Shown one piece after another: positions 8,706-19,470 of a DNA stretch of 27,489 nucleotides. The stretch's first letter is position 1; the number at the start of each line of letters is the position of its first letter. This DNA comes from Candidatus Thorarchaeota archaeon (lineage in GTDB: Archaea; Asgardarchaeota; Thorarchaeia; Thorarchaeales; Thorarchaeaceae): the NCBI GenBank assembly GCA_048882205.1, contig JBHLRV010000001.1, positions 1 to 27,489 of the forward strand, written 5' to 3'. The notes under the pieces were generated by a model. That model was not told where the DNA came from and made no database searches. It saw nothing but the letters and a program-made list of their open reading frames with translations. The position numbers were made by a program, and so were the translations under genes.

Positions 8706-9068
8706 TTGGTAAGATCCGGCCCAACTGACCCCAACACTCGCACATTAATCAATGCGCTCAGAAAGACATCTGCGAAGCACAACGTTAAGATTTGGAAGAG
8801 GGTCGCAGAACTAGTGGCACGGCCTGCCAGAAAGCGACCTGCAGTGAATGTCGGGAAGATAGGTCGCCATACCTCTGCAGGCGACGTTGTCGTAGTGCCT
8901 GGTAAGGTCCTAGGCTCAGGAAACCTCCCGCACAAAGTTACTGTTGCTGCCCTGAATGCGTCAGCTTCTGCTAGGCTGGTAATCATCGGTGCAGGAGGCT
9001 CGCTAATCAGCATAGACGAACTACTTGACAAAGTCCCCAAGGGCAAGGGAGTGACGATTATTGTTTAG
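8706..9068 (+). CDS. rpl18e: 50S ribosomal protein L18e
   Basis: IWKRVAELV...VNVGKI...VVVPGKVLGSG. TTG start after GAGGTGA. Confidence 0.96.
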   Translation: MVRSGPTDPNTRTLINALRKTSAKHNVKIWKRVAELVARPARKRPAVNVGKIGRHTSAGDVVVVPGKVLGSGNLPHKVTVAALNASASARLVIIGAGGSLISIDELLDKVPKGKGVTIIV

Positions 9069-9077
9069 GTGGTATCA

Positions 9078-9530
9078 ATGAGCGAGAAAGAAGTCAAAGT
9101 CTACGATGCCGAGGACATGGTCATAGGAAGATTGGCCTCTAAGGTCGCCAAGGCTGCTCTACTAGGGGACACAGTTGCAGTCGTAAACGCCGAGAAGGCT
9201 ATTATCACAGGTGACAGGCGTACGGTCATTGAAGCTTACAAGGAGAAGTTCAACATTCGTACCTCATACAATCCAAGAAAGGGACCTTTCCATAACCGAC
9301 GTCCCGATAAGATGGTCCGTCGGATGATACGAGGGATGCTACCCTGGCCTACACCTCGTGGTAAGATGGCCTACAAGCGTGTCAAGGTCTACATCGGAGT
9401 GCCTGAGAATCTGATTGACTCTGAGAGGATCGTGCTTGAGGGCTCCCGTTACAAGAGTCTTACACGAAAACACATCACAATTGAAGATCTGAGCGATGAA
9501 CTCGGATGGAGGAACCCGGAGGTCACATGA
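9078..9530 (+). CDS. rpl13: 50S ribosomal protein uL13
   Basis: DAEDMVIGRLAS, VNAEKAIITG, RRMIRGMLP and GVP motifs. ATG 9078 follows AGGTGG. Confidence 0.97.
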   Translation: MSEKEVKVYDAEDMVIGRLASKVAKAALLGDTVAVVNAEKAIITGDRRTVIEAYKEKFNIRTSYNPRKGPFHNRRPDKMVRRMIRGMLPWPTPRGKMAYKRVKVYIGVPENLIDSERIVLEGSRYKSLTRKHITIEDLSDELGWRNPEVT

Positions 9531-9531
9531 G

Positions 9532-9936
9532 ATGTCTATCAGAGTCGTCGTTTCCACCGGAAAGAGAAAGACATCACTGGCAAAGGCCACAATTAAACAT
9601 GGCCAGGGCCGCATCAGAGTGAATGGAAGACCTCTTGAAGTGCTCCAGCCTGAGATTGTCAAACTCAAGGCAATGGAGCCACTCATTCTCTTTGGCGAAG
9701 ATTGGAAGAAGTACGATATCAGGGTGCGCGTACAGGGTGGAGGTTTCATGAGCCAGGCCGATGCCGTACGAATGGCCGTTGCTACTGGTCTATTTCGAAT
9801 GAGTCAGGACTTTGAAGCACGGTCACGAATGCTGGAGCACGACAGGACAATGCTAGTTGGGGATCCTCGACGCACAGAGCCCAAGAAGTTCGGTGGGCCC
9901 TCCGCACGCTCCCGCTATCAGAAATCATACAGGTGA
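9532..9936 (+). CDS. rps9: 30S ribosomal protein uS9
   Basis: GKRKTSLA, VQGGGFMSQADAVR, DPRRTEPKKFGGPSARSRYQKSYR. Confidence 0.98.
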   Translation: MSIRVVVSTGKRKTSLAKATIKHGQGRIRVNGRPLEVLQPEIVKLKAMEPLILFGEDWKKYDIRVRVQGGGFMSQADAVRMAVATGLFRMSQDFEARSRMLEHDRTMLVGDPRRTEPKKFGGPSARSRYQKSYR

Positions 9937-9945
9937 GAAATGAAG

Positions 9946-10164
9946 ATGATCATACCAGTCCGTTGTTTCACATGTGGAAAAGTGGTTGCTGACAAGTTCG
10001 AGCAATTCAAGCGTCAAGTTCGCCAGGGCGAGGACCCAGCAGTAGTCCTTGACAATTTGGGACTTCATAGGTACTGTTGTCGAAGAATGCTCTTGTCACA
10101 TATCGATATCATTGACAGTTTCATGGCGTTTGCTACGACTGAGGTGGTGGAGGGCAAGCAGTGA
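9946..10164 (+). CDS. rpoN: RNA polymerase subunit N (Rpo10)
   Basis: [12 protein letters not shown]...[11 protein letters not shown]. An alternative start lies at 9940. Confidence 0.97.
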
Positions 10165-10799
10165 TGAGCGAAACAGAAATCCCCGAAGCTGAACTACTGA
10201 CACCAATGGACAAATATCTGGCTGCTGGCTGCCACATAGGAACGCAGGTGAAGACGCAGGACATGGACCCATTCGTCTACAGGCAGCGTCCAATTGGTCT
10301 GTACGTTCTGGATGTCAGAAAGACTGACGAACGTATCAGAGTAGCGGCCAAGTTCATTGCACGATTCGAGCCTTCAAAGATCGTTGTGGCGTCAGGTCGA
10401 GTCTATGGAAAACGCCCCGTGGAGAGCTTTGCCTACTACACAGGCGCCCATGCGTTCACAGATCGATTTGTCCCTGGATCGCTCACCAATCCCAATATCG
10501 CAGGTCCGCGTGTCTACGTGGAGCCTGACCTGGTCATCCTCACTGATCCTCGAACTGACCAGCAAGCACTATCAGAGGCAGGCAAGATCGGAGTTCCTGT
10601 CATCGCTCTGTGTGATACTGACAATGTGACTACAGGCGTGGATCTCGTCTTGCCTTCGAACAACAGAGGTAGGAAAGCCTTGGCACTTGTCTACTTCTTG
10701 TTGACTCGTCAGGTCTTGAGGGAGCGAGGAACAATCCCTGAAGACGGTGAGACCAGCTTTACTCCAGATGACTTTGAGCCTCAGATGCAGCGATTCTAG
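10164..10799 (+). CDS. rps2: 30S ribosomal protein uS2
   Basis: YLAAGCHIGTQ, RFVPGSLTNP, DPRTDQQALSEA, PSNNRGRKAL. Confidence 0.97.
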   Translation: MSETEIPEAELLTPMDKYLAAGCHIGTQVKTQDMDPFVYRQRPIGLYVLDVRKTDERIRVAAKFIARFEPSKIVVASGRVYGKRPVESFAYYTGAHAFTDRFVPGSLTNPNIAGPRVYVEPDLVILTDPRTDQQALSEAGKIGVPVIALCDTDNVTTGVDLVLPSNNRGRKALALVYFLLTRQVLRERGTIPEDGETSFTPDDFEPQMQRF

Positions 10800-11197
10800 C
10801 TCTTCTCGTGGATGGAAACAACGCCCCGGTCGGCGTCCACTTCCACTGATTGTCCAGTTTCAATCTTCTCAATATCAATATGGTCCACAGTGGGAATCTC
10901 TGAGATTATGCTCCCAACTGCTATGACTGGGTCCGTTTCCTTGTTCACAATGGCAGCAGGAGCCTTGTCAGCCTTCTTCAGAGCATACAGAACATACGAT
11001 CCGACGGTCGAACCCTTCCCACTCGGCATTACCAGTATCTTTCCAGCCACTGACTTGCCTTCTAGTGGGTGATCCTTCTCCACAACCTCGCCAGTTTCGG
11101 GGTCAACACCTCCATAGAAACTGATGTCCATGGCAGTGACAAGCGCTTCACCTTCTGCCTTTCCCTTGTAGATCTTACGGCCCTGCAGCTCTGTCAC
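10796..11197 (-). CDS. AcnX small (swiveling, DUF126) subunit; predicted phosphomevalonate dehydratase small subunit
   Basis: GEALVT...ISFYGGVDPETG...HPLEGKSVAGKILV...GKGSTVGSYV. GTG start 11197 overlaps the upstream TGA and follows a GGAGG SD. Confidence 0.9.
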   Translation of the reverse strand: MTELQGRKIYKGKAEGEALVTAMDISFYGGVDPETGEVVEKDHPLEGKSVAGKILVMPSGKGSTVGSYVLYALKKADKAPAAIVNKETDPVIAVGSIISEIPTVDHIDIEKIETGQSVEVDADRGVVSIHEKS

Positions 11198-12381
11198 GAA
11201 ACCGCCTCCTTGATGCATTCATCTATTGTTCGAATCTTCACATTGAACCTGTTCTTTCCTCGTGCGTAGAAGCAAGCCTTTGCTGAGTCTGTCATCAGGC
11301 CTTGGAATCGGCCTTTTAGTGGTGCCACTGCACAACACGCATCACTGACCAAGAACGCACCAGCTTTCTCTATCTTGTCGTAGTATCCCATCTTGATGGC
11401 CACATCCTTGGTCGGTTTCGCTGTGGTTATCCACACGGTCTTGCCTTCTGTTACCTTCTTCCCGTCAAGCATCTCGGCTACTTTAGCTATGTCCGCGATA
11501 CTTGCATGTGGGCATCCGACACTGACGAAGTCAATCTCTGCTGCTTCGTCATCGAGTTCTTGTCTGGCTCTCTCAAGGTCATCTTGAGTCACAATCTCTG
11601 TAATGTCTGGCTCTGTTGTCCGGTTGGGCGTAATCCCCTCCATATGGAAGAGAGCCACTCCACCATATGTTGCGACAGATGCACAGAAGGACCTCAGATG
11701 GTCCGTGGTAGCATGAGAAACGCCGGTGATATAGGGAATCTGCTTCCCGGTGCAATCCCCAATGACCTTCCCCAGTAGGCCAAAGTCGTCAGTTGTCTTC
11801 AATTCTGCTTCTATCTCATAGCCTACCTGTGCCATTCTGTTCTTCTCAAGATGGAAGCCATACTCCGCAGTCTTACCCGTGAGTGCAGAAGCAAGGGCAC
11901 TAGGCCCTCCTTCCCTGTTTGTACGGGCACCAATCACAGAGTTCGCGAAGCAGACAGCTGAGGACTCAGCCCATGCTATGTGTTCGCCATAGTGTGGCAG
12001 GTTGCCTATCAGATAGGGCGTGCAGGTACAGGTCGTTACCACTCCCATCCTTGAGAAGGCATCAACAACTCTCTGTTGGTTCTTGGCAAAGTCTTCGCTA
12101 ATGCCATGCTTTCTCCATTCCAACAGGTCCATACCCGCAGGATTCAGAGTTGTCAGAACGCGCGTCTGACCATCCTCAGCCATCTCTGAGAGGTAATCCA
12201 GACCGGCCTCTCCTAGATTATGGTATGAAACCCCGGCTATCTGGACACTAACAACAGGAATCAGTCGTTCAGCACCATAGATCTCACCTAATGTTGTGAT
12301 AATCTCCATGGTCTTCCTGGTGGCATTACCATACTTGCCCTCAAGCATATCCTGTTCTTCTGATGTGAGTTCAAGTGCCAT
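11194..12381 (-). CDS. AcnX large (DUF521) subunit; predicted phosphomevalonate dehydratase large subunit
   Basis: TCTPY, WAESSAV, GARTNREGGPSAL, GCPHAS, DACC and SAKACFY (Fe-S Cys ligands present). Confidence 0.9.
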   Translation of the reverse strand: MALELTSEEQDMLEGKYGNATRKTMEIITTLGEIYGAERLIPVVSVQIAGVSYHNLGEAGLDYLSEMAEDGQTRVLTTLNPAGMDLLEWRKHGISEDFAKNQQRVVDAFSRMGVVTTCTCTPYLIGNLPHYGEHIAWAESSAVCFANSVIGARTNREGGPSALASALTGKTAEYGFHLEKNRMAQVGYEIEAELKTTDDFGLLGKVIGDCTGKQIPYITGVSHATTDHLRSFCASVATYGGVALFHMEGITPNRTTEPDITEIVTQDDLERARQELDDEAAEIDFVSVGCPHASIADIAKVAEMLDGKKVTEGKTVWITTAKPTKDVAIKMGYYDKIEKAGAFLVSDACCAVAPLKGRFQGLMTDSAKACFYARGKNRFNVKIRTIDECIKEAVS

Positions 12382-12382
12382 G

Positions 12383-13696
12383 TCATTCACCCATGAACCT
12401 CTTCAAATCGACCTTTGGAAACTCCGCCTTGTCAAAGCTCTTACCCTTGGTATCTAATACCTTCGTACAGTCAAAGCCAATCTTAGTTGTCATCTTTGTT
12501 CCAGGCTCGGCACTTGGGTCTAGCGAGCTACCCGGTTCTTTGTCTTTTATCAGCAGGTTCACATCACCTTGGAATCGGGTTGCCATGGCCCACTCTCTCT
12601 CCTCTTCGTTGTAGATGTCAATGTCCTCATCATAGACCCAGACATGTTTCGCGCTTCGATGACCTGAAAAAGCCCCCTCGATCGCTTTCAGTCCATCGTC
12701 TTCATTACTCTTCCTAATCTGTACAGCAATGTGAAGCCAACTAGTGCCGCCGGGAGTGATGTTCACATCCAAGACGTCAACTCCGCGCTCCTTGATGCTC
12801 CTGAATACTGTGGGTTCACGAGGCATTCCCATGAGTATCTTGTGTTCGAGTCGACCCGGTAGCAGCGCTTGCCAGATTGCGTTCTTCCTATGAGTGATCT
12901 TCTTGACCTCGAATACAGGCTCCTGCCGAATGATGTCCACAGTTTCAGTCAGATCTATGAATGGACCTTCATCATGTTTCTCATCTAGAATGACCCTTCC
13001 TTCGAGGACAAATTCACAATCAGCAGGAATCATCAGGTCCACAGTCTTTGCCTTAGTCACCCGTATTGGTCTCAAGGCGTTTGCTATCTCCAGCTCATTC
13101 ACACCCGTTTCAACTGACGTTGCTGCTGCAATCAAGACCTCCGGAGTGTTCCCAATGCAAAAGGCAACATCAAGCTCGCCGTTCTTCTCAAGGAACTTGT
13201 GAAAGTCACGCCCGCGCACGACTCTTGCTACCATCTGGTCTTTCTCAATCTGCATTGCCCTGTGGAAATCCAGATTCTGACCATATTCAGGGTCTGCAGC
13301 CACCACAACTCCTGATGAGATATAGGGTCCGCCGTCCACCTCATTGTGAAGCAGTATTGGCAGCGCATCAAGATCCACATCTTCTCTCACAATCTCTTGA
13401 CACGGAGCATCATCGGTCGTTTCTGGTGGGCTGCGATTCTCAATAGCACTAGCCAGTGTTGGGATGATCTCCTTGACCTCTATGCCGAAATAGTCTGCAA
13501 TCTGTTCCTTTGTGCAGAATAGATTGCCAGCAACTCTGAACTCGGACTCCTTGACACTATCAAAGAGTGCTGGCATGGGCTCCATTGAATTCAGGACGCC
13601 GGCGATCTCTAGCTTCTTGGATATACTAGTGTCTATCTTCCTGAGTTTTCCTTCTTTGAGAAGACGTTCTATGTATCTCTCGAGTATCATCTTCAT
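12383..13696 (-). CDS. UbiD-family (prFMN-dependent) decarboxylase; predicted anhydromevalonate phosphate decarboxylase
   Basis: DGGPYISSG, EFVLEG, EGPF, EHKILMG and WAMATRFQ UbiD motifs. Function inferred from the operon with mvk and AcnX. Confidence 0.85.
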   Translation of the reverse strand: MKMILERYIERLLKEGKLRKIDTSISKKLEIAGVLNSMEPMPALFDSVKESEFRVAGNLFCTKEQIADYFGIEVKEIIPTLASAIENRSPPETTDDAPCQEIVREDVDLDALPILLHNEVDGGPYISSGVVVAADPEYGQNLDFHRAMQIEKDQMVARVVRGRDFHKFLEKNGELDVAFCIGNTPEVLIAAATSVETGVNELEIANALRPIRVTKAKTVDLMIPADCEFVLEGRVILDEKHDEGPFIDLTETVDIIRQEPVFEVKKITHRKNAIWQALLPGRLEHKILMGMPREPTVFRSIKERGVDVLDVNITPGGTSWLHIAVQIRKSNEDDGLKAIEGAFSGHRSAKHVWVYDEDIDIYNEEEREWAMATRFQGDVNLLIKDKEPGSSLDPSAEPGTKMTTKIGFDCTKVLDTKGKSFDKAEFPKVDLKRFMGE

Positions 13697-13703
13697 ACCT
13701 CAA

Positions 13704-14645
13704 TCAAAGTCCGAAAGTCGTGTTGTAGACGAGAGGCGCCCCACTTCTTTCCAACGCATCACCGATTTGTCTCTGAACCTCTTCGTTCGGCGCGAGGGCA
13801 ATCATGTTGCCACCACGTCCAGTTCCAGTGAGTTTTGCTCCAAGAGCTCCGGTCTTCTTAGCATTTTCAACCATTTCGTCCAGTTCTTTACAGGAAACTG
13901 TCAGATTCTGTAACAATTCGTGATTTCTGTTCATTAATTCTCCAACCTGGTTCAAATTGACATCAAGCAGCGCCTCTCTTGCTTGATGAACCAATGCCTC
14001 GTATTCAGTGGCAATCTCATTGAACCAATCAGGATTCTGCTCTTTCTTGGCTCGAACATCACCAACGACCTCAGATGTGCTTGCCGTTAGGCCTGTTGAT
14101 GCGATTGTGAGGTGAATTGCCTTCTTGAGCTTGAGCTTCTCAAAGGTGGGAGCACCACCACTGAGGGCTCTCACATACCAGACAAGGCCGCCAAAAGTTG
14201 AAGCAGTGTTGTCAATTCCGGACGGGGTTCCATGATACCCCTTCTCACCCTCATATGCAATCTCGTTTATCTTGTCATCGTCAAATCCGAGGCCGAACTC
14301 GTCATTCAATGCACGGGCAAGAGACACACAACTAGCTGCACTAGCTCCAAATCCAGATGCGCAGACCAAGTCCCCTTCATACTCGATGAAGATTCCCTTA
14401 TCACTCATGTCCAATCCCGCCGCTCTTAGAACGTTATTGATTGAAATGGTCTGTTCATCCAGCTTCTTGACCTTGTAGCCCGGCACTTCTGGTCTTCTGT
14501 CGTCTAGTTTCCAGCCGAGGTCTTTGGATCTGCTAACGAATGCTACCGTTTCTGCAGATATGCCAGCGGCAAGTGCAGGAAGGCCGTAGACAACGAAGTG
14601 CTCTCCAAACAAGATACTCTTGCCGCGGCCAGTGCCTCTTCCCAT
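13704..14645 (-). CDS. mvk: Mevalonate kinase (GHMP family)
   Basis: GKSILFGEHFVVYG, SGFGASAA, HGTPSGIDN, KLTGTGRGG. Start at ATG 14645. Confidence 0.9.
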   Translation of the reverse strand: MGRGTGRGKSILFGEHFVVYGLPALAAGISAETVAFVSRSKDLGWKLDDRRPEVPGYKVKKLDEQTISINNVLRAAGLDMSDKGIFIEYEGDLVCASGFGASAASCVSLARALNDEFGLGFDDDKINEIAYEGEKGYHGTPSGIDNTASTFGGLVWYVRALSGGAPTFEKLKLKKAIHLTIASTGLTASTSEVVGDVRAKKEQNPDWFNEIATEYEALVHQAREALLDVNLNQVGELMNRNHELLQNLTVSCKELDEMVENAKKTGALGAKLTGTGRGGNMIALAPNEEVQRQIGDALERSGAPLVYNTTFGL

Positions 14646-14785
14646 TCTCTCACGCTCAATCGCCGAGATTTGCAGCGGGAAGGCGTATCGCCACTTTTGA
14701 ACTCTTCCTTCGTCACCATTCAAAGTGAACCAGGGCCATTCTGTGCGCAAGACTCTTGTTCATTTCTGACGAATCGCAAGCAGAA

Positions 14786-15751
14786 ATGAATGTGTTGGAC
14801 CTATTCTCAGGTGCTGGTGGATTCTCATCAGGTTTCATATCACGCTCTGAAGAGTCACATCTGGCTGTGGACATAGATCCTTGTGCTTTGACCACCTTTG
14901 CTCTCAACTATCCCGGAGTTGGTACTCTCCATAGGGACATAGGAGCCACTCATTCTGTCGAGCTTCTGAACGAGCTTGGTGGCAAACCTGACATCATAAT
15001 CGCCTCTCCGCCCTGTGAAGAGTTCAGTCGTGCGAATCCCAATAGTGACACTCCAGCTGCCGAACGAATCTATGGCACAGGAACAGCCAGGCTTCTTCTT
15101 GACACTATTAGGCTCATCGGAAACCTGACACCGTCAGTCTTCGTGATTGAGAATGTGGCGGCGCTACTTCATAGGGGTGGAAGTGAGATTATCCGCCAAG
15201 AGTTTGAACGACTAGGGATTGACAATGTCTGGTTCAATATGGTACGTGCTCATAAACATGGCAATCCTTCAAAGCGGCTTAGAGTGTTCATCAGTAATGT
15301 GAAGTTTGCCCTTCCCCGAGGAACCCCTCCACGGGTTATGGAGGCAATCGGAGACCTCCCACCTCTCGGTATAGATGCACTCTTCTCTCCAAGCGACCAT
15401 GTTGCCAATCATTACCTTCAGCCTCTGACCGAGGATAGATTGAAGACTGTCAGAAGGATCCGGTGGGGTCATGGTGCCAAGCACTTCAGAGCGTCTAAGA
15501 CACGTACGATGCCAAACTGGGTGCGGCTCGCACCTGATCAAGTGTCTACATCGATAATTGGCCTCTCCCGATACATACATCCCTTTGAGAATCGGCTTCT
15601 CACAGTTCGAGAACACGCAAGACTCATGAGCTATCCTGACTCATTCGTGTTCAATGGTCCAACAGACAGCCAGTATAATCAGGTGGGCGAGAGCGTCCCA
15701 CCATTAATCTCGCATCTAATTGCGGAGGAGGTTCAGAAACATCTTGAGTGA
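14786..15751 (+). CDS. C5-cytosine methyltransferase (Dcm/Dnmt fold), orphan
   Basis: Motif I DLFSGAGG, IV SPPCEEFS (catalytic Cys), VI IENV, VIII GNPSKRLRVF, IX LTVREHARLMSYP, X VGESVPP. Confidence 0.92.
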   Translation: MNVLDLFSGAGGFSSGFISRSEESHLAVDIDPCALTTFALNYPGVGTLHRDIGATHSVELLNELGGKPDIIIASPPCEEFSRANPNSDTPAAERIYGTGTARLLLDTIRLIGNLTPSVFVIENVAALLHRGGSEIIRQEFERLGIDNVWFNMVRAHKHGNPSKRLRVFISNVKFALPRGTPPRVMEAIGDLPPLGIDALFSPSDHVANHYLQPLTEDRLKTVRRIRWGHGAKHFRASKTRTMPNWVRLAPDQVSTSIIGLSRYIHPFENRLLTVREHARLMSYPDSFVFNGPTDSQYNQVGESVPPLISHLIAEEVQKHLE

Positions 15752-15755
15752 CCTA

Positions 15756-16220
15756 ATGAAGAATGTCTATGTCGTGTTGCATGATGTTCATGCGGTCAGT
15801 AGAGTGATTGAAACCGCCCAAGTGGTCTATGGACTAGGTTTCTCAAACTTCGTAGTCTCGAAAGCCGAAGGCTCTGCTGCGCAGACTGGTGTTCCTGAGG
15901 CCAACCGTCTTGCCATGAAGATGAAAGGAAGCTTCATGGTTTTGCCAGATCTGCGTGATGTACTTGAGGTTCTGAATGCAGAACGCCCCGTATTGATCAT
16001 ATCCCCAGTGCTCACAAAAGAACGCGTGGACATTGATAACCTCGTGAGCCGCGTAAAGTCCGGAGAACGATTTGTAATCGCATTCTCCGGTAGCAACAAG
16101 TCCTTCTCCAGAAAGGAGATGGACATGGGAAACTGCTTCAGTCTAGAAGCCAAAGTCGATATTGGTTCGTCTGGGTCTGCAGCGGTTGTGCTACATGCAA
16201 TATCAACTAGGCTTTCATGA
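15756..16220 (+). CDS. DUF2122/COG4080-like protein (SPOUT-like, often labelled 'RecB-family nuclease')
   Basis: VVLHDVHAVSRVIETAQVVYGLG...GSAAQTGVPEANRLA...LPDLRDVLEVL pattern. C-terminal AFSGSNKSFSRKE...IGSSG resembles a SPOUT knot. Recognised from memory. Confidence 0.7.
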   Translation: MKNVYVVLHDVHAVSRVIETAQVVYGLGFSNFVVSKAEGSAAQTGVPEANRLAMKMKGSFMVLPDLRDVLEVLNAERPVLIISPVLTKERVDIDNLVSRVKSGERFVIAFSGSNKSFSRKEMDMGNCFSLEAKVDIGSSGSAAVVLHAISTRLS

Positions 16221-16233
16221 AGTCACTCACAGT

Positions 16234-17388
16234 CTAGCCAGCTACTCTTCCCTGCTTCATCCGCACAATTAGGGCAAGAATGACGACTACTCCCACAACT
16301 AGAATAACAAGTTCAAGACCCAGAGGAAATGGATGACTCTCACCGATCTCCAGAACCACGAATCCATTGTCCTGATCGGTCATATAGACTATGTCGTCCA
16401 CCACTTCAACTCGACAGGGCTTGCCGCCATCAACATAACGAGTTATCTCGGTAGGCTGAGTCGGATTACTGATGTTCAACATCACTAGTCCTATCTCATA
16501 GTCACAAAGAAAGGCGAGATCCCGTTCACCCTCGATATGGACTGAGAAGGAATCCAAGCTCTCAGTGAACTCGGCGACAAGTCTAATGTCTGCCACGTCA
16601 CTAACATTCAACACTTTGAAGCTGTGTCCCCAGTAAGTCAGAAAAGCCAAGTTTCCTACAATCTCAAGATCACCCGATTCTGCAACGTTTGTTGAGTCTC
16701 CTGTGTACTGTCCCACTTCCACTGGATTAGAACGATTGCTCACATCAAGGACGGTGAATCCTGCATAACTTGTTGTAACAAAAGCTAGGTTTCCAACCAC
16801 CTCAATATCCGTTGCATCACCCCTCACAGTGTAGCTCTTCAGCATTTCTGGAGTAGTTGAATCTGTGACGTTGACAATTGTCAGTCTGTCACCACTACCC
16901 AAGAACCCATTCGCTACGAACGCAGTATCTCCTTCTACTTCTACGGCCCAAGCATAGTGACCAGTGTACTGACACAGAACCTCGGGACTTGATGAGTTCG
17001 TGCAGTCTATGATCTTGAGTCCGCCACGACCGTCACCTACGAACAAGAGATTGCCACGGACAAAGACCTGATGTGCGTATGCTTGGTGACCATCTATATC
17101 TTCGGAAGGCAAGTGCGCCAGTTCAACAGGATCCGCGGGATTGCTAACATCAAAGATCCTTACTCCAGAGTAGCCGCATGACACATAGGCAATGTTTCTA
17201 TCAGTGTCAATCCACACATCGTAGGCATCACCAGTTTCGACACCTGCTATTCTTGATAGCACAAGATCAGTCGTGCTTGCCCCAGACACAGGACAGGCGA
17301 TGAATCCCACACTCACAAACAAGACCGCAGCCAGAATGCAGTTCAATCTCCACCTTCTTGAGGGCCGTGACCAATGCGACACATTCAA
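16234..17388 (-). CDS. Secreted, membrane-anchored LVIVD-repeat beta-propeller protein
   Basis: N-terminal signal peptide, seven ~40-aa repeats (e.g. DIEVVGNLAFVTTSYAGFTVLDVSN), C-terminal TM helix with basic tail. TTG start after a GGGGA SD. Confidence 0.88.
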   Translation of the reverse strand: MNVSHWSRPSRRWRLNCILAAVLFVSVGFIACPVSGASTTDLVLSRIAGVETGDAYDVWIDTDRNIAYVSCGYSGVRIFDVSNPADPVELAHLPSEDIDGHQAYAHQVFVRGNLLFVGDGRGGLKIIDCTNSSSPEVLCQYTGHYAWAVEVEGDTAFVANGFLGSGDRLTIVNVTDSTTPEMLKSYTVRGDATDIEVVGNLAFVTTSYAGFTVLDVSNRSNPVEVGQYTGDSTNVAESGDLEIVGNLAFLTYWGHSFKVLNVSDVADIRLVAEFTESLDSFSVHIEGERDLAFLCDYEIGLVMLNISNPTQPTEITRYVDGGKPCRVEVVDDIVYMTDQDNGFVVLEIGESHPFPLGLELVILVVGVVVILALIVRMKQGRVAG

Positions 17389-17493
17389 TATCTATCCCCT
17401 CTCAGACAGGAATACTTCAGATTCGGTAGAAAAGCGTGTCTTACAACGCAACATATCTCTCATTCAAAATGTGCCAGCCTAGAAGAATGAAAG

Positions 17494-17516
17494 TGGTGGG
17501 CCGGACGAGATTTGAA
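17494..17516 (-). repeat. att-like 23-bp duplicate of the tRNA-Pro 3' end
   Basis: TGGTGGGCCGGACGAGATTTGAA is identical to 18081-18103. Confidence 0.95.
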
Positions 17517-18002
17517 TCAAACAGCATTGTATGTGAACTGGAACTGCATATTCACTGGAACATCTGAAATCTTGACAATGTGGTAAGGATATGTAATAAC
17601 CTCAGTAAGATCTCCATAAAGCGACTCCTCAACATAGACCATGTAGTATGTGCTAGTCGAGATAATCCGCGTAATTCTCGTCCAGAATCCGCCACCGCCG
17701 CAGTAGCCTCGAAATACAGCGATAATGGTCTCTGATGTGAAGTTGATGGCCGGAAGCTCTGGTATGGAAAAACCTCCTCCATGTATCTCTAGCCATAGAC
17801 ATTCCCAGGCCGCCGCATCTCTTATTGTGAGATTAGCTCTCAGAGTATAACCAGAGCTCTTATCCCCCTTGTCTATCTCCTCAAAGGGAACGTCAACGCC
17901 AAGTAGAAGCGGCAGATTGGGTCCAAGCAGAATTAGAGATGAAGCTACCAACCCGATGCAAATTGCAGATCCCGCTATGACTTTGACAGAGGCTTTCACC
18001 AT
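17517..18002 (-). CDS. Membrane-anchored PrcB C-terminal-domain-like protein
   Basis: N-terminal hydrophobic anchor, then LPAINF...IIAVFRG...GGF...ITRI...VYVEE...ITYPYHIVKI, a pattern typical of PrcB_C. ATG 18002 follows GGAAGGCGG. Confidence 0.7.
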   Translation of the reverse strand: MVKASVKVIAGSAICIGLVASSLILLGPNLPLLLGVDVPFEEIDKGDKSSGYTLRANLTIRDAAAWECLWLEIHGGGFSIPELPAINFTSETIIAVFRGYCGGGGFWTRITRIISTSTYYMVYVEESLYGDLTEVITYPYHIVKISDVPVNMQFQFTYNAV

Positions 18003-18080
18003 ATGACCGCCTTCCAAATCATCAGATACAGTAAAGACTCTGAAGGCATATAACACCAGGGATTAGAGAAGATGGGGGAA

Positions 18081-18157
18081 TGGTGGGCCGGACGAGATTT
18101 GAACTCGCGATCCCTTGGATCCGAACCAAGAATCATACCAAGCTAGACCACCGACCC
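18081..18157 (-). tRNA. tRNA-Pro(CGG), intronless, CCA encoded
   Basis: GGGTCGG/CCGGCCC acceptor stem, CTTGG-TTCGGAT-CCAAG anticodon arm, GTTCAAATC T-loop, 3' ACCA. Length 77 nt. Confidence 0.97.
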
Positions 18158-18184
18158 ATGACCAGAGGGAACCCCCTGTGAGAA

Positions 18185-19018
18185 TCATTTAATCATTTCG
18201 TTGAAACGTTCCCTCAGCGACTCCACTGTACCCAGATACACTCCTGCTATACTATATACGTCCGACTTGAGAATGTCAGCACAGCTATTCTCAAAGAAAG
18301 GCCCATAGAAGGTTGTCTTTGGAGTATTGACCTGCACTCCTGAGAAGAGTTCGTTGAAGCTTGGAAGAGTGACAACAACCCCTTCCGAGTCATCAGGAGC
18401 TTCAGGAGCGCCGATATTCTGGCGTACACAGTTCCTATCCAGTTTTGAGCGCAGAATGACTGGGATTACACCAGCAAATCGTCGCCTACCAGCCCGATCT
18501 ATCTCAGGTGCATCAACAGACCTCACATTTCGTAGAGTTGGGTGGTTGTGCCCTATCACGAGTATCGGTGCTTCTAGCACCTTCGGAGATGGCCAAGAAT
18601 GTCCATGCAGTAGTCCGACTGTTTCCTCACCTTCACCTATCACTATACCACGGACATCAAGCAGAGAAACACTCCTCGGCAGAAGAGGAAGCAAATCGCC
18701 ATCATGGTTTCCAGGAATTACATGGATTCTGCACAGGTCTGAAAGAGCCGACATGAGATCAGGGACTGACTGCCAATTAGGAGGACTATGTACAGTGATG
18801 GAATGCTTGACATCCCCGATTATATGGATATCTTCGACTGCGTGGTTCTCAACGAGTGCTGATATCCTCTTGAGTAAACTCGCATTTTGGGCTGGATACG
18901 CAATTCCTCTCTCCTCGTAGAGAGTGTGCTCGAAACCAAGATGAAGATCTGCGACTATGAGGACTCTAAAGTCATCTGCCTTGATCACCATCGCCCGGTC
19001 TTCGAAGATAACCTCCAT
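18185..19018 (-). CDS. Calcineurin-like metallophosphoesterase (COG1407/Lhr-associated MPE type)
   Basis: ADLHLG, GDVKH, GNHD, HGH, GHNHP and LPSFN motifs. Confidence 0.9.
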   Translation of the reverse strand: MEVIFEDRAMVIKADDFRVLIVADLHLGFEHTLYEERGIAYPAQNASLLKRISALVENHAVEDIHIIGDVKHSITVHSPPNWQSVPDLMSALSDLCRIHVIPGNHDGDLLPLLPRSVSLLDVRGIVIGEGEETVGLLHGHSWPSPKVLEAPILVIGHNHPTLRNVRSVDAPEIDRAGRRRFAGVIPVILRSKLDRNCVRQNIGAPEAPDDSEGVVVTLPSFNELFSGVQVNTPKTTFYGPFFENSCADILKSDVYSIAGVYLGTVESLRERFNEMIK

Positions 19019-19074
19019 TATTGACGTTGGTCATCAATCCTACAACATTTTAACCTGACCGTCTGACACTGTGA

Positions 19075-19470
19075 ATGAGAAACATGGCCCTCCCTTCCAA
19101 AGAGGTCAAGATGCTTTGCAAAGAAGAGCTGACCCAGAGTGACATCGAGTACTTTCGTTCCAAGTACGGTAAGAGGTTTGTGAGGGCTCTCAGGGCAGTT
19201 GAGGAGGGGCGAGTATCAGAGCATTTCTTCCGTCCCAGTGAAACAACGAAGTGGATTGTGCAGGGAAAGCGCAGGGAGTATCTTGTCATCCCCAGAGTGT
19301 TCTGCACATGTCGCAGCTTCTATCATTCAGTTGTCATAGAGCGAGAGGTGGAGATGTGCTACCATCTGCTAGCGCAAGCAATTGCTGAGGCTCGAAACCA
19401 ACAGAAGATAGTTGAATCCACCGACGCTGAGCGGCGGGAGATGAGTGCTGAGCTTCGCAGAACAGACTGA
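19075..19470 (+). CDS. SWIM zinc-finger protein (SWS1/ZSWIM7-like)
   Basis: FCTCRSF-x11-CYHLLA (CxC...CxH). Start is uncertain (19075, 19084 or 19111). Confidence 0.85.
   Translation: MRNMALPSKEVKMLCKEELTQSDIEYFRSKYGKRFVRALRAVEEGRVSEHFFRPSETTKWIVQGKRREYLVIPRVFCTCRSFYHSVVIEREVEMCYHLLAQAIAEARNQQKIVESTDAERREMSAELRRTD

Follow-up and report, generated by a model that had tools for sequence, protein, structure and literature searches.

Streptococcal cis-mobilizable elements (CIMEs) derive from integrative and conjugative elements (ICEs), and cognate ICEs occur at the same site. CIMEs and accretion at att sites were reportedly described by Pavlovic in 2004 and by Bellanger in 2011. Among elements anchored at tRNA genes, the tycheposons of Prochlorococcus are islands that carry a tyrosine or large serine recombinase, often together with replication genes, and span several kilobases or more (Hackl et al., bioRxiv 10.1101/2020.12.28.424599). 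Aloposons (Wu et al. 2022, PMC8813620) are large elements of Asgard archaea at tRNA genes and are characterised by giant genes in tandem and a ParA-like module. Integrons, with IntI, attI and gene cassettes bounded by attC, include sedentary chromosomal arrays and integrase-less clusters of attC sites (CALINs). The locus described here lies on contig JBHLRV010000001.1 of a Thorarchaeota (Asgard) metagenome-assembled genome (MAG; G000, 2.02 Mb in 376 contigs, 74% complete, GC 49.5%), within a stretch of 27,489 nucleotides that we analysed as a whole and call the window. It consists of a 587-bp unit with a single PrcB-family gene, enclosed between the 3′ end of tRNA-Pro(CGG) and an exact copy of that end. 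This unit is probably a one-gene cassette, complete in itself, that has docked where tRNA-Pro(CGG) ends, part of a lineage-wide Thorarchaeota system in which units are gained, lost and recombined singly. Our literature searches retrieved no account of cassette arrays built on tRNA tails in Asgard archaea.

The components of the unit, all on the minus strand, are as follows:

18081–18157, minus strand: tRNA-Pro(CGG), the docking gene, intact and with CCA encoded (ARAGORN; the sole tRNA called in the window)
18081–18103, minus strand: proximal 23-nt repeat copy, formed by the tRNA itself with its T-loop, the 3′ strands of its T-stem and acceptor stem, and CCA
18065–18080, minus strand: pyrimidine-rich tract of 16 nt directly behind the tRNA, the first bases of the cassette and a probable tRNA terminator
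18047–18053, minus strand: TTATATG, a TATA-like box and predicted promoter some 45 nt before the ATG
17517–18002, minus strand: cargo gene whose 161-aa product has a membrane helix at its N-terminus and a PrcB C-terminal domain (open reading frame (ORF) 17517–18056; likely start ATG 18002)
17494–17516, minus strand: distal copy of the tRNA's last 23 nt, identical at 23/23 positions and adjoining the TGA of the cargo gene

Read in the direction of the tRNA, the unit thus comprises the pyrimidine tract, TTATATG, a likely ribosome-binding stretch and one ORF. The repeat extends from T54 of the T-loop to the terminal A (A76), with the two copies 587 bp apart, start to start, and an insert of 564 bp. 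At up to three mismatches it has two matches in the window and none in 100 dinucleotide-preserving shuffles, so the exact recurrence of the tRNA tail is non-random. A first-pass annotation, made from the letters and an ORF list, had already pointed to this repeat, and its account of the anatomy holds. The sequence, the ORF list, Pfam and a fold search agree that only a pyrimidine tract, TTATATG and one PrcB_C-like membrane gene lie between the copies. The stop codon TGA (17517–17519) meets the repeat, which ends at 17516, with zero spacer, and pyrimidine tracts stand behind both copies (18065–18080 and 17481–17493). The tRNA-Pro sequence is identical to that of the congeneric G012, G006 and G014 and of G008 (18080–18160 at 100%). 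Boxes similar to TTATATG occupy the equivalent position in the related PrcB cassettes of loci L097, L064 and L099, and the box would be the cassette's own promoter.

This layout resembles that of integrative elements that target tRNA genes: the repeat covers T54 to CCA, other tails in these genomes start in the anticodon loop, and the tRNA appears regenerated, all in keeping with the sublocations of Williams 2002. Unlike such elements, the unit has no element-encoded integrase and no symmetric core, and its insert measures only 564 bp. The distal site lacks the T-stem 5′ half-site (the 5′ strand) and therefore provides no symmetric core for a simple tyrosine recombinase.

The same position was compared across relatives. 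It is flanked by conserved genes, and the slot between the tRNA and DUF2122 varies. The features around the unit are:

18185–19018, minus strand: metallophosphoesterase gene, the conserved boundary upstream of the tRNA
17380–17493, minus strand: ancestral downstream flank of the tRNA, a pyrimidine tract (17481–17493) followed by a spacer, which aligns with the sequence directly behind the tRNA of G004
16234–17388, minus strand: gene for a membrane-anchored LVIVD-repeat protein (Pfam PF08309, E 2.8e-37; synteny)
15720–16220, plus strand: DUF2122 gene, the conserved distal boundary of the variable slot (Pfam)

About 45 genome and metagenome loci with metallophosphoesterase, tRNA-Pro(CGG) and DUF2122 were examined, and this order is kept through genus and family. 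The slot is empty in about 20 of them (nine reference genomes and eleven metagenome contigs), with 6–101 bp from the tRNA to the convergent end of DUF2122. In the closed genome of a congener (G004; 2.58 Mb on one contig), the 587-bp unit is missing: some 86 bp separate tRNA-Pro from the LVIVD gene, with DUF2122 beyond it, and the flank behind the window's distal copy aligns with the flank behind the tRNA of G004. The distal copy hence bears the ancestral flank, as expected for insertion into the 3′ end of the tRNA with regeneration of the tRNA.

Other relatives fill the slot differently. A 200-aa membrane protein (X200) is present in six loci (L052, L056, L064, L142, L146 and L153), followed by a near-perfect tail in L146 and L064 and by a decayed one in L052. 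A 237-aa S-adenosylmethionine (SAM) methyltransferase occurs in at least six loci (G012, G011, G008, L151, L156 and L161), and a 405-aa M23 peptidase in two (L048, with a 21-nt tail, and L157). PrcB is found in four of the roughly 45 loci (G000, L097, L141 and L064); in L064, it forms a second unit behind the X200 cassette and its tail. The LVIVD gene is a second variable module, without a distal repeat, and only G000 and G004 have it among these loci. The modules combine independently, as PrcB alone, X200 alone, X200 with tail and PrcB, PrcB with tail and LVIVD, or LVIVD alone. Between L064 and L052, homology ends at the tail and restarts at DUF2122. The unit thus occurs as a whole or not at all, with its limits at the repeat, and is a discrete module of gain and loss. 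The search for different cargo at the same site, as proposed in the first-pass annotation, was therefore productive, yielding X200, the SAM methyltransferase, the M23 peptidase and LVIVD. No integrase and no multi-kilobase element was present in any of the slot loci, and a codon-degenerate pattern for the junction of gene end and tail, aimed at copies of this very cassette, gave no matches in the JGI metagenomes.

The arrangement recurs behind other tRNA genes, and in arrays behind tRNA-Leu the cargo family makes up one of five to seven cassettes. In the JGI contig L099, tRNA-Leu(TAG) is followed by six copies of its last 24 nt, 277–642 bp apart, with one small ORF per interval, the fifth of which is a PrcB homologue. 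In L103, the same tRNA is followed by four or five tail copies, with PrcB second and a major facilitator superfamily transporter third. BLASTN comparison of these two arrays revealed three common cassettes in a different order, and every homology block begins and ends in tails. A further PrcB homologue, 53% identical, lies directly behind tRNA-Leu(GAG) in G003 (contig C16, L087 1320–2050); behind this homologue comes a decayed copy of the 3′ part of that tRNA (about 22 of 34 nt). The cargo family is thus found at other loci, where the first-pass annotation had suggested looking for the same cassette.

G000 itself contains several such sites. On its contig C242 (L007 534–2959), tRNA-Ala(GGC) precedes three co-oriented copies of its last 21–24 nt, 983, 1550 and 2349 bp from the tRNA, and one unit encodes a CPBP/Rce1-like protease on the opposite strand, while the other two encode membrane proteins of 84 aa and about 240 aa. 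Single units with decaying distal copies stand behind an intron-containing tRNA on C16 (L008 747–1815; called Pro by ARAGORN, with a doubtful anticodon call) and behind tRNA-His on C41 (L009 1990–3038), the latter with a small HNH gene and a zinc-ribbon protein. Genome-wide, 20-mers from tRNA tails gave 19 matches outside tRNAs at about nine distinct sites, some of them at undetected tRNAs or contig ends; as controls, 20-mers from tRNA heads gave five matches, every one of them at a contig end or an undetected tRNA, and reversed tails gave none. Relatives also carry runs of Pro, Leu and Ala tails. Examples are Ala tails in the closed G004 (four within 3 kb) and in G015 (four), and Leu tails in G020 (five); control patterns in reverse had no matches. 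Array units measure 0.3–1.7 kb, hold one gene each and form stacks of three to seven. Tail lengths cluster at 21–24 nt, starting at the T-loop, and at about 45 nt, starting at the anticodon loop. Pyrimidines predominate in roughly the first nine positions behind CCA in a set of 36 tails and copies drawn from 11 loci, and they occupy positions +1, +2 and +9 in 35 of the 36.

A larger arrangement was seen on contig C49 of G020 (L082 805–16941), where a 17-kb stretch holds six tails of two tRNA types, some of them 45 nt long. Among the genes in one interval of about 9 kb are those for a HerA-like ATPase (1029 aa) and a multi-helix-turn-helix (HTH) protein (923 aa), along with other large ORFs without a family. 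In gene content, this insert looks like a defence module rather than an integrative element.

These arrays share with integrons their single-ORF units of 0.3–1.7 kb, each closed by a site-like repeat, in one orientation and at a fixed docking site; as in sedentary chromosomal arrays and CALINs, relatives differ in which units they hold and in how these are ordered. They differ from integrons in several respects. Neither IntI nor any other tyrosine recombinase was found beside the tRNA or elsewhere in the 74%-complete G000, and the tRNA is flanked by the metallophosphoesterase and DUF2122 genes. The Thorarchaeota repeat is the 3′ end of the resident tRNA rather than a palindromic attC, and no attC-like hairpin was predicted, either strand of 17470–17545 folding at z values of 0.35 and 1.30 relative to shuffles. 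Each genome has many docking sites, one per tRNA, and the cassette seems to bring its own TATA box, in contrast to the Pc promoter of integrons. The idea put forward in the first-pass annotation, of an integron-like cassette moved in trans, is accordingly upheld in part: block-wise presence and absence, alternative cargo and permuted arrays speak for it, whereas a circle or empty-site joint in the metagenome contigs, a matching integrase, a half-site and an attC hairpin were all looked for and not found.

Tycheposons are similar in integrating at tRNA genes, in forming tandem elements parted only by a partial tRNA copy, in having further partial tRNAs dispersed over their islands and in carrying niche or defence cargo, but the Thorarchaeota units have one gene and no recombinase or replication module. 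With CIMEs, the units share attL/attR-like repeats, the lack of a recombination module and a presumed movement assisted by the integrase of a related element. Unlike for CIMEs, no element bearing a cognate integrase was present in the roughly 45 slot loci, and the four tail sequences searched had no matches in IMG/VR, with the reservation that MAGs may miss such elements. Aloposons are also Asgard archaeal and integrated at tRNA genes; identity with them was rejected, as their giant-gene elements are unlike one-gene cassettes.

A tRNA tail behind each gene might instead be a duplicated functional signal, a tRNA 3′ end with terminator that ends or processes the cassette transcript. This would fit the pyrimidine tract behind every tail, as behind tRNA genes, and the gene in the window, which is co-oriented with its tail and ends exactly there. 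However, the genes of other cassettes lie on either strand with respect to the tail, including the CPBP protease of C242 and the ORFs of C16, and array homology breaks exactly at the tails. Moreover, a tRNA-like fold would require 5′ strands that the 23 nt do not include, and the z values given above indicate no stable structure. We regard a role as a transcript signal as very improbable.

The first-pass annotation had named a decayed larger island as the conservative reading, in which the unit would be the deletion remnant of an integrase-bearing virus, plasmid or island. Direct repeats of tRNA 3′ ends that start in the T-loop or anticodon loop are classic scars of tyrosine integrases, as Williams 2002 is cited in a passage of PMC8813620; larger tail-bounded inserts exist, such as the one of about 9 kb in G020, and some Thorarchaeota genomes encode integrases. 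Against this, a large or integrase-bearing element, which the annotation had named as evidence for a remnant, was present in none of the roughly 45 slot loci, and the insert in G020 has a HerA-like ATPase and an HTH protein but no integrase. What the unit contains is an entire gene, preceded by signals of its own and closed by a stop codon adjoining the repeat. One-gene units in stacks of three to seven, permuted between arrays, are not expected of random internal deletions. A decayed island is thus disfavoured, and we consider it rather improbable.

The enzyme that would move the units was sought with models for recombinases (PF00589, PF16795, PF00239 and NCBIfam XerA). Neither the window nor the whole of G000, at 74% completeness, has a match to PF00589 (Phage_integrase), in agreement with the first-pass annotation, which had seen no integrase; the genomic tyrosine integrase with a matching att that it had suggested looking for was likewise not found. 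Across the family, 11 of 31 genomes match PF00589, including 6 of the 17 high-quality ones, and Resolvase (PF00239) is present in 10 of the 31. Twenty of the 31, several of them 97–99% complete, have no tyrosine recombinase match. Neither the SSV-type integrase model nor XerA gave a match in the genomes searched (for XerA, nothing over the cut-off), a set that includes G000 and G020 but not G014 and G015. The tail-rich genomes G014, G015 and G020, as well as G000, match neither Phage_integrase nor Resolvase. G004 encodes one tyrosine recombinase; this was ruled out as a conserved helper, since 16 congeners lack a homologue. Large inserts were also considered as a source, and no integrase was found in the insert of about 9 kb in G020 or in L160 and L143. 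The PrcB-family gene is the only substantial ORF in the unit, which encodes no mobility enzyme.

In the system that we propose, small cargo modules would be stacked behind tRNA genes, each closed by a copy of the resident tRNA's tail. Tail-bearing DNA would recombine reciprocally with the tRNA's own 3′ end, the donor being either a circle looped out between two array tails or a tail-cassette-tail fragment from a relative. The tRNA would be remade from the incoming tail, the former 3′ end would become the distal copy, and looping out between the copies would take the unit out again. If carried out by host recombination, the process would consist of looping out between tails followed by single-crossover integration or unequal exchange. 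As the agent, a site-specific recombinase acting in trans, unrecognised by profiles or encoded on unbinned DNA, is a serious candidate, and host homologous recombination on the tails of 21–45 nt is one of the same standing; a guided or otherwise new enzyme is less likely. Host recombination would use the tRNA 3′ end because it is the longest stretch that is identical across species. Lengths of 21–45 nt are about the minimal efficient recombination length reported in E. coli. More tentatively, Thorarchaeota might capture genes genome-wide at the 3′ ends of stable-RNA genes, here those for tRNAs, as one-gene cassettes without a canonical integrase, through an unrecognised recombinase (possibly guided by RNA 3′ ends or fragments) or host recombination on 21–45-nt tails, and this would be an archaeal functional counterpart of integrons.

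Such a system, if real, would imply an undiscovered recombinase or very efficient short-homology recombination. The shuffling of single genes at tRNA genes, in genomes in which no integrase was found, would be a new route of gene flow in the lineage, and the shuffled cargo would include surface proteins, peptidases, methyltransferases and defence modules. The tRNA-Pro(CGG) slot offers a clean test bed: the genes that flank it are conserved, some 20 alleles are empty, and one-gene contents of at least five alternative kinds occur in it.

The junctions of the unit were also traced in public metagenomes. Logan contigs of four runs from four studies (X1, X2, X4 and X6) were mapped to 16000–19200 of the window; the runs with the cassette or its junctions derive from sediment, mangrove and one unlabelled metagenome, and no RNA runs were among those listed for the cassette. 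The distal junction is bridged in three runs, by contigs covering 16000–17553 (X1 and X2) and 17257–17617 (X6), and contigs covering 17535–18108 (X1 and X2) and 17751–18106 (X4) run from the cassette into the T-stem of the tRNA. These data bear on whether two populations were misjoined at a common tRNA sequence, which would have produced a false repeat. Such a misjoin could be imagined from the tRNA being common to many community members (depth 538, compared with 5–25 nearby) and from the different nearest relatives of the two flanks. Independent contigs nevertheless cross the distal junction and reach unique sequence in both directions, so the repeat is not an assembly artefact of the kind that the first-pass annotation had reckoned with; the other contigs pass from cassette into T-stem, and the same architecture recurs in other assemblies. 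An artefact is scarcely credible.

A number of observations weigh against a mobile one-gene cassette. In the contigs of the four runs, neither a circle joint nor an empty-site joint (a skip of 587 bp) was present, which is weak evidence because contigs drop rare variants. Sequencing depth is uneven, at 24.8 upstream, 5.1 in the cassette and 9.3 downstream, with 538 in the tRNA itself. Kinship is mosaic across the tRNA (window 8900–19100, compared with L030 and L032): the 1 kb upstream is nearest to G012 (91%), while the 8 kb downstream are nearest to G011 (90%, as against 80% to G012). Such mosaic flanks may reflect recombination at the tRNA or a chimeric join of co-occurring strains. The composition of the cassette is native, not foreign (GC 0.457, compared with 0.48–0.50 in neighbouring genes). 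With G000 being incomplete (74%), an integrase-bearing helper element could be unbinned. Gain and loss are not separable with certainty, as the cassette could be old at this site and its tail could have been kept identical by gene conversion, and L097 has a PrcB of the same sub-type at the same tRNA with an apparently decayed tail. Whichever explanation of the flanks holds, a tRNA-Pro(CGG) adjoins the cassette at one end and the side of LVIVD and DUF2122 at the other. In X1 and X2, contigs carrying the cassette have a depth of 5.1–5.6, compared with 9.3–9.4 on the LVIVD side, and break at 17535–17553, in the 3′ end of the gene; the depth step and the break may point to a second allele or sub-population.

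Some of these points would suit a cassette that was ancestral at tRNA-Pro and inherited vertically, with relatives whose slot is empty or differently filled having shed it when the tRNA recombined with the distal copy, and with the copy kept identical by gene conversion, so that its presence would be a matter of retention rather than recent insertion. On this view, too, the unit would be a cassette belonging to the system described above. PrcB occupies the same slot in L097, L141 and L064 at 47–59% identity, and the native composition fits as well. The PrcB proteins of the window (P0001) and of L097 (P0002) share the derived loss of a PGEGC loop and of a C-terminal YDCE, and their stop codons have the same position, adjoining the tail in the window and a tail-like remnant in L097. 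From these shared deletions and the stop position, it follows that the cassette lineage is old at tRNA-Pro(CGG), and its presence in the window may stem from transfer among such sites or from prolonged retention during which the tail underwent conversion. Still, the repeat in the window is identical at 23/23 positions while the tails by the cassettes of L097 and L052 are decayed, and of the two modules the cassette is the one nearer the tRNA, the LVIVD module being present in G004 without it. PrcB is present in only 4 of about 45 loci, and its identity of 47–59% is well under that of the flanking DUF2122 (64–85%) in the same genomes. We consider simple vertical retention unlikely, and a cassette of a system that gains and loses units singly remains our preferred explanation.

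The cargo of this cassette comprises an N-terminal hydrophobic helix and a beta-rich domain. Pfam PF14343 (PrcB_C) matches it with an E-value of 3e-4 and 21.4 bits, under the gathering cut-off of 24 bits. The 12 database homologues are all from Thorarchaeota or metagenomes, and PF14343 is precomputed for all 13 proteins, including the one from the window. A PDB fold search with the AlphaFold model (14-sequence alignment, pLDDT 75) retrieved no significant solved structure. In a fold search of AFDB clusters, the model matched those named PrcB C-terminal domain proteins (E 1.7e-9, TM 0.69), and by this model-based comparison membership in the PrcB C-terminal family is confirmed. We treat the cargo as an accessory protein associated with the envelope. 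The 3′ end of its gene contains an imperfect tandem repeat of 17 nt (17528–17561).

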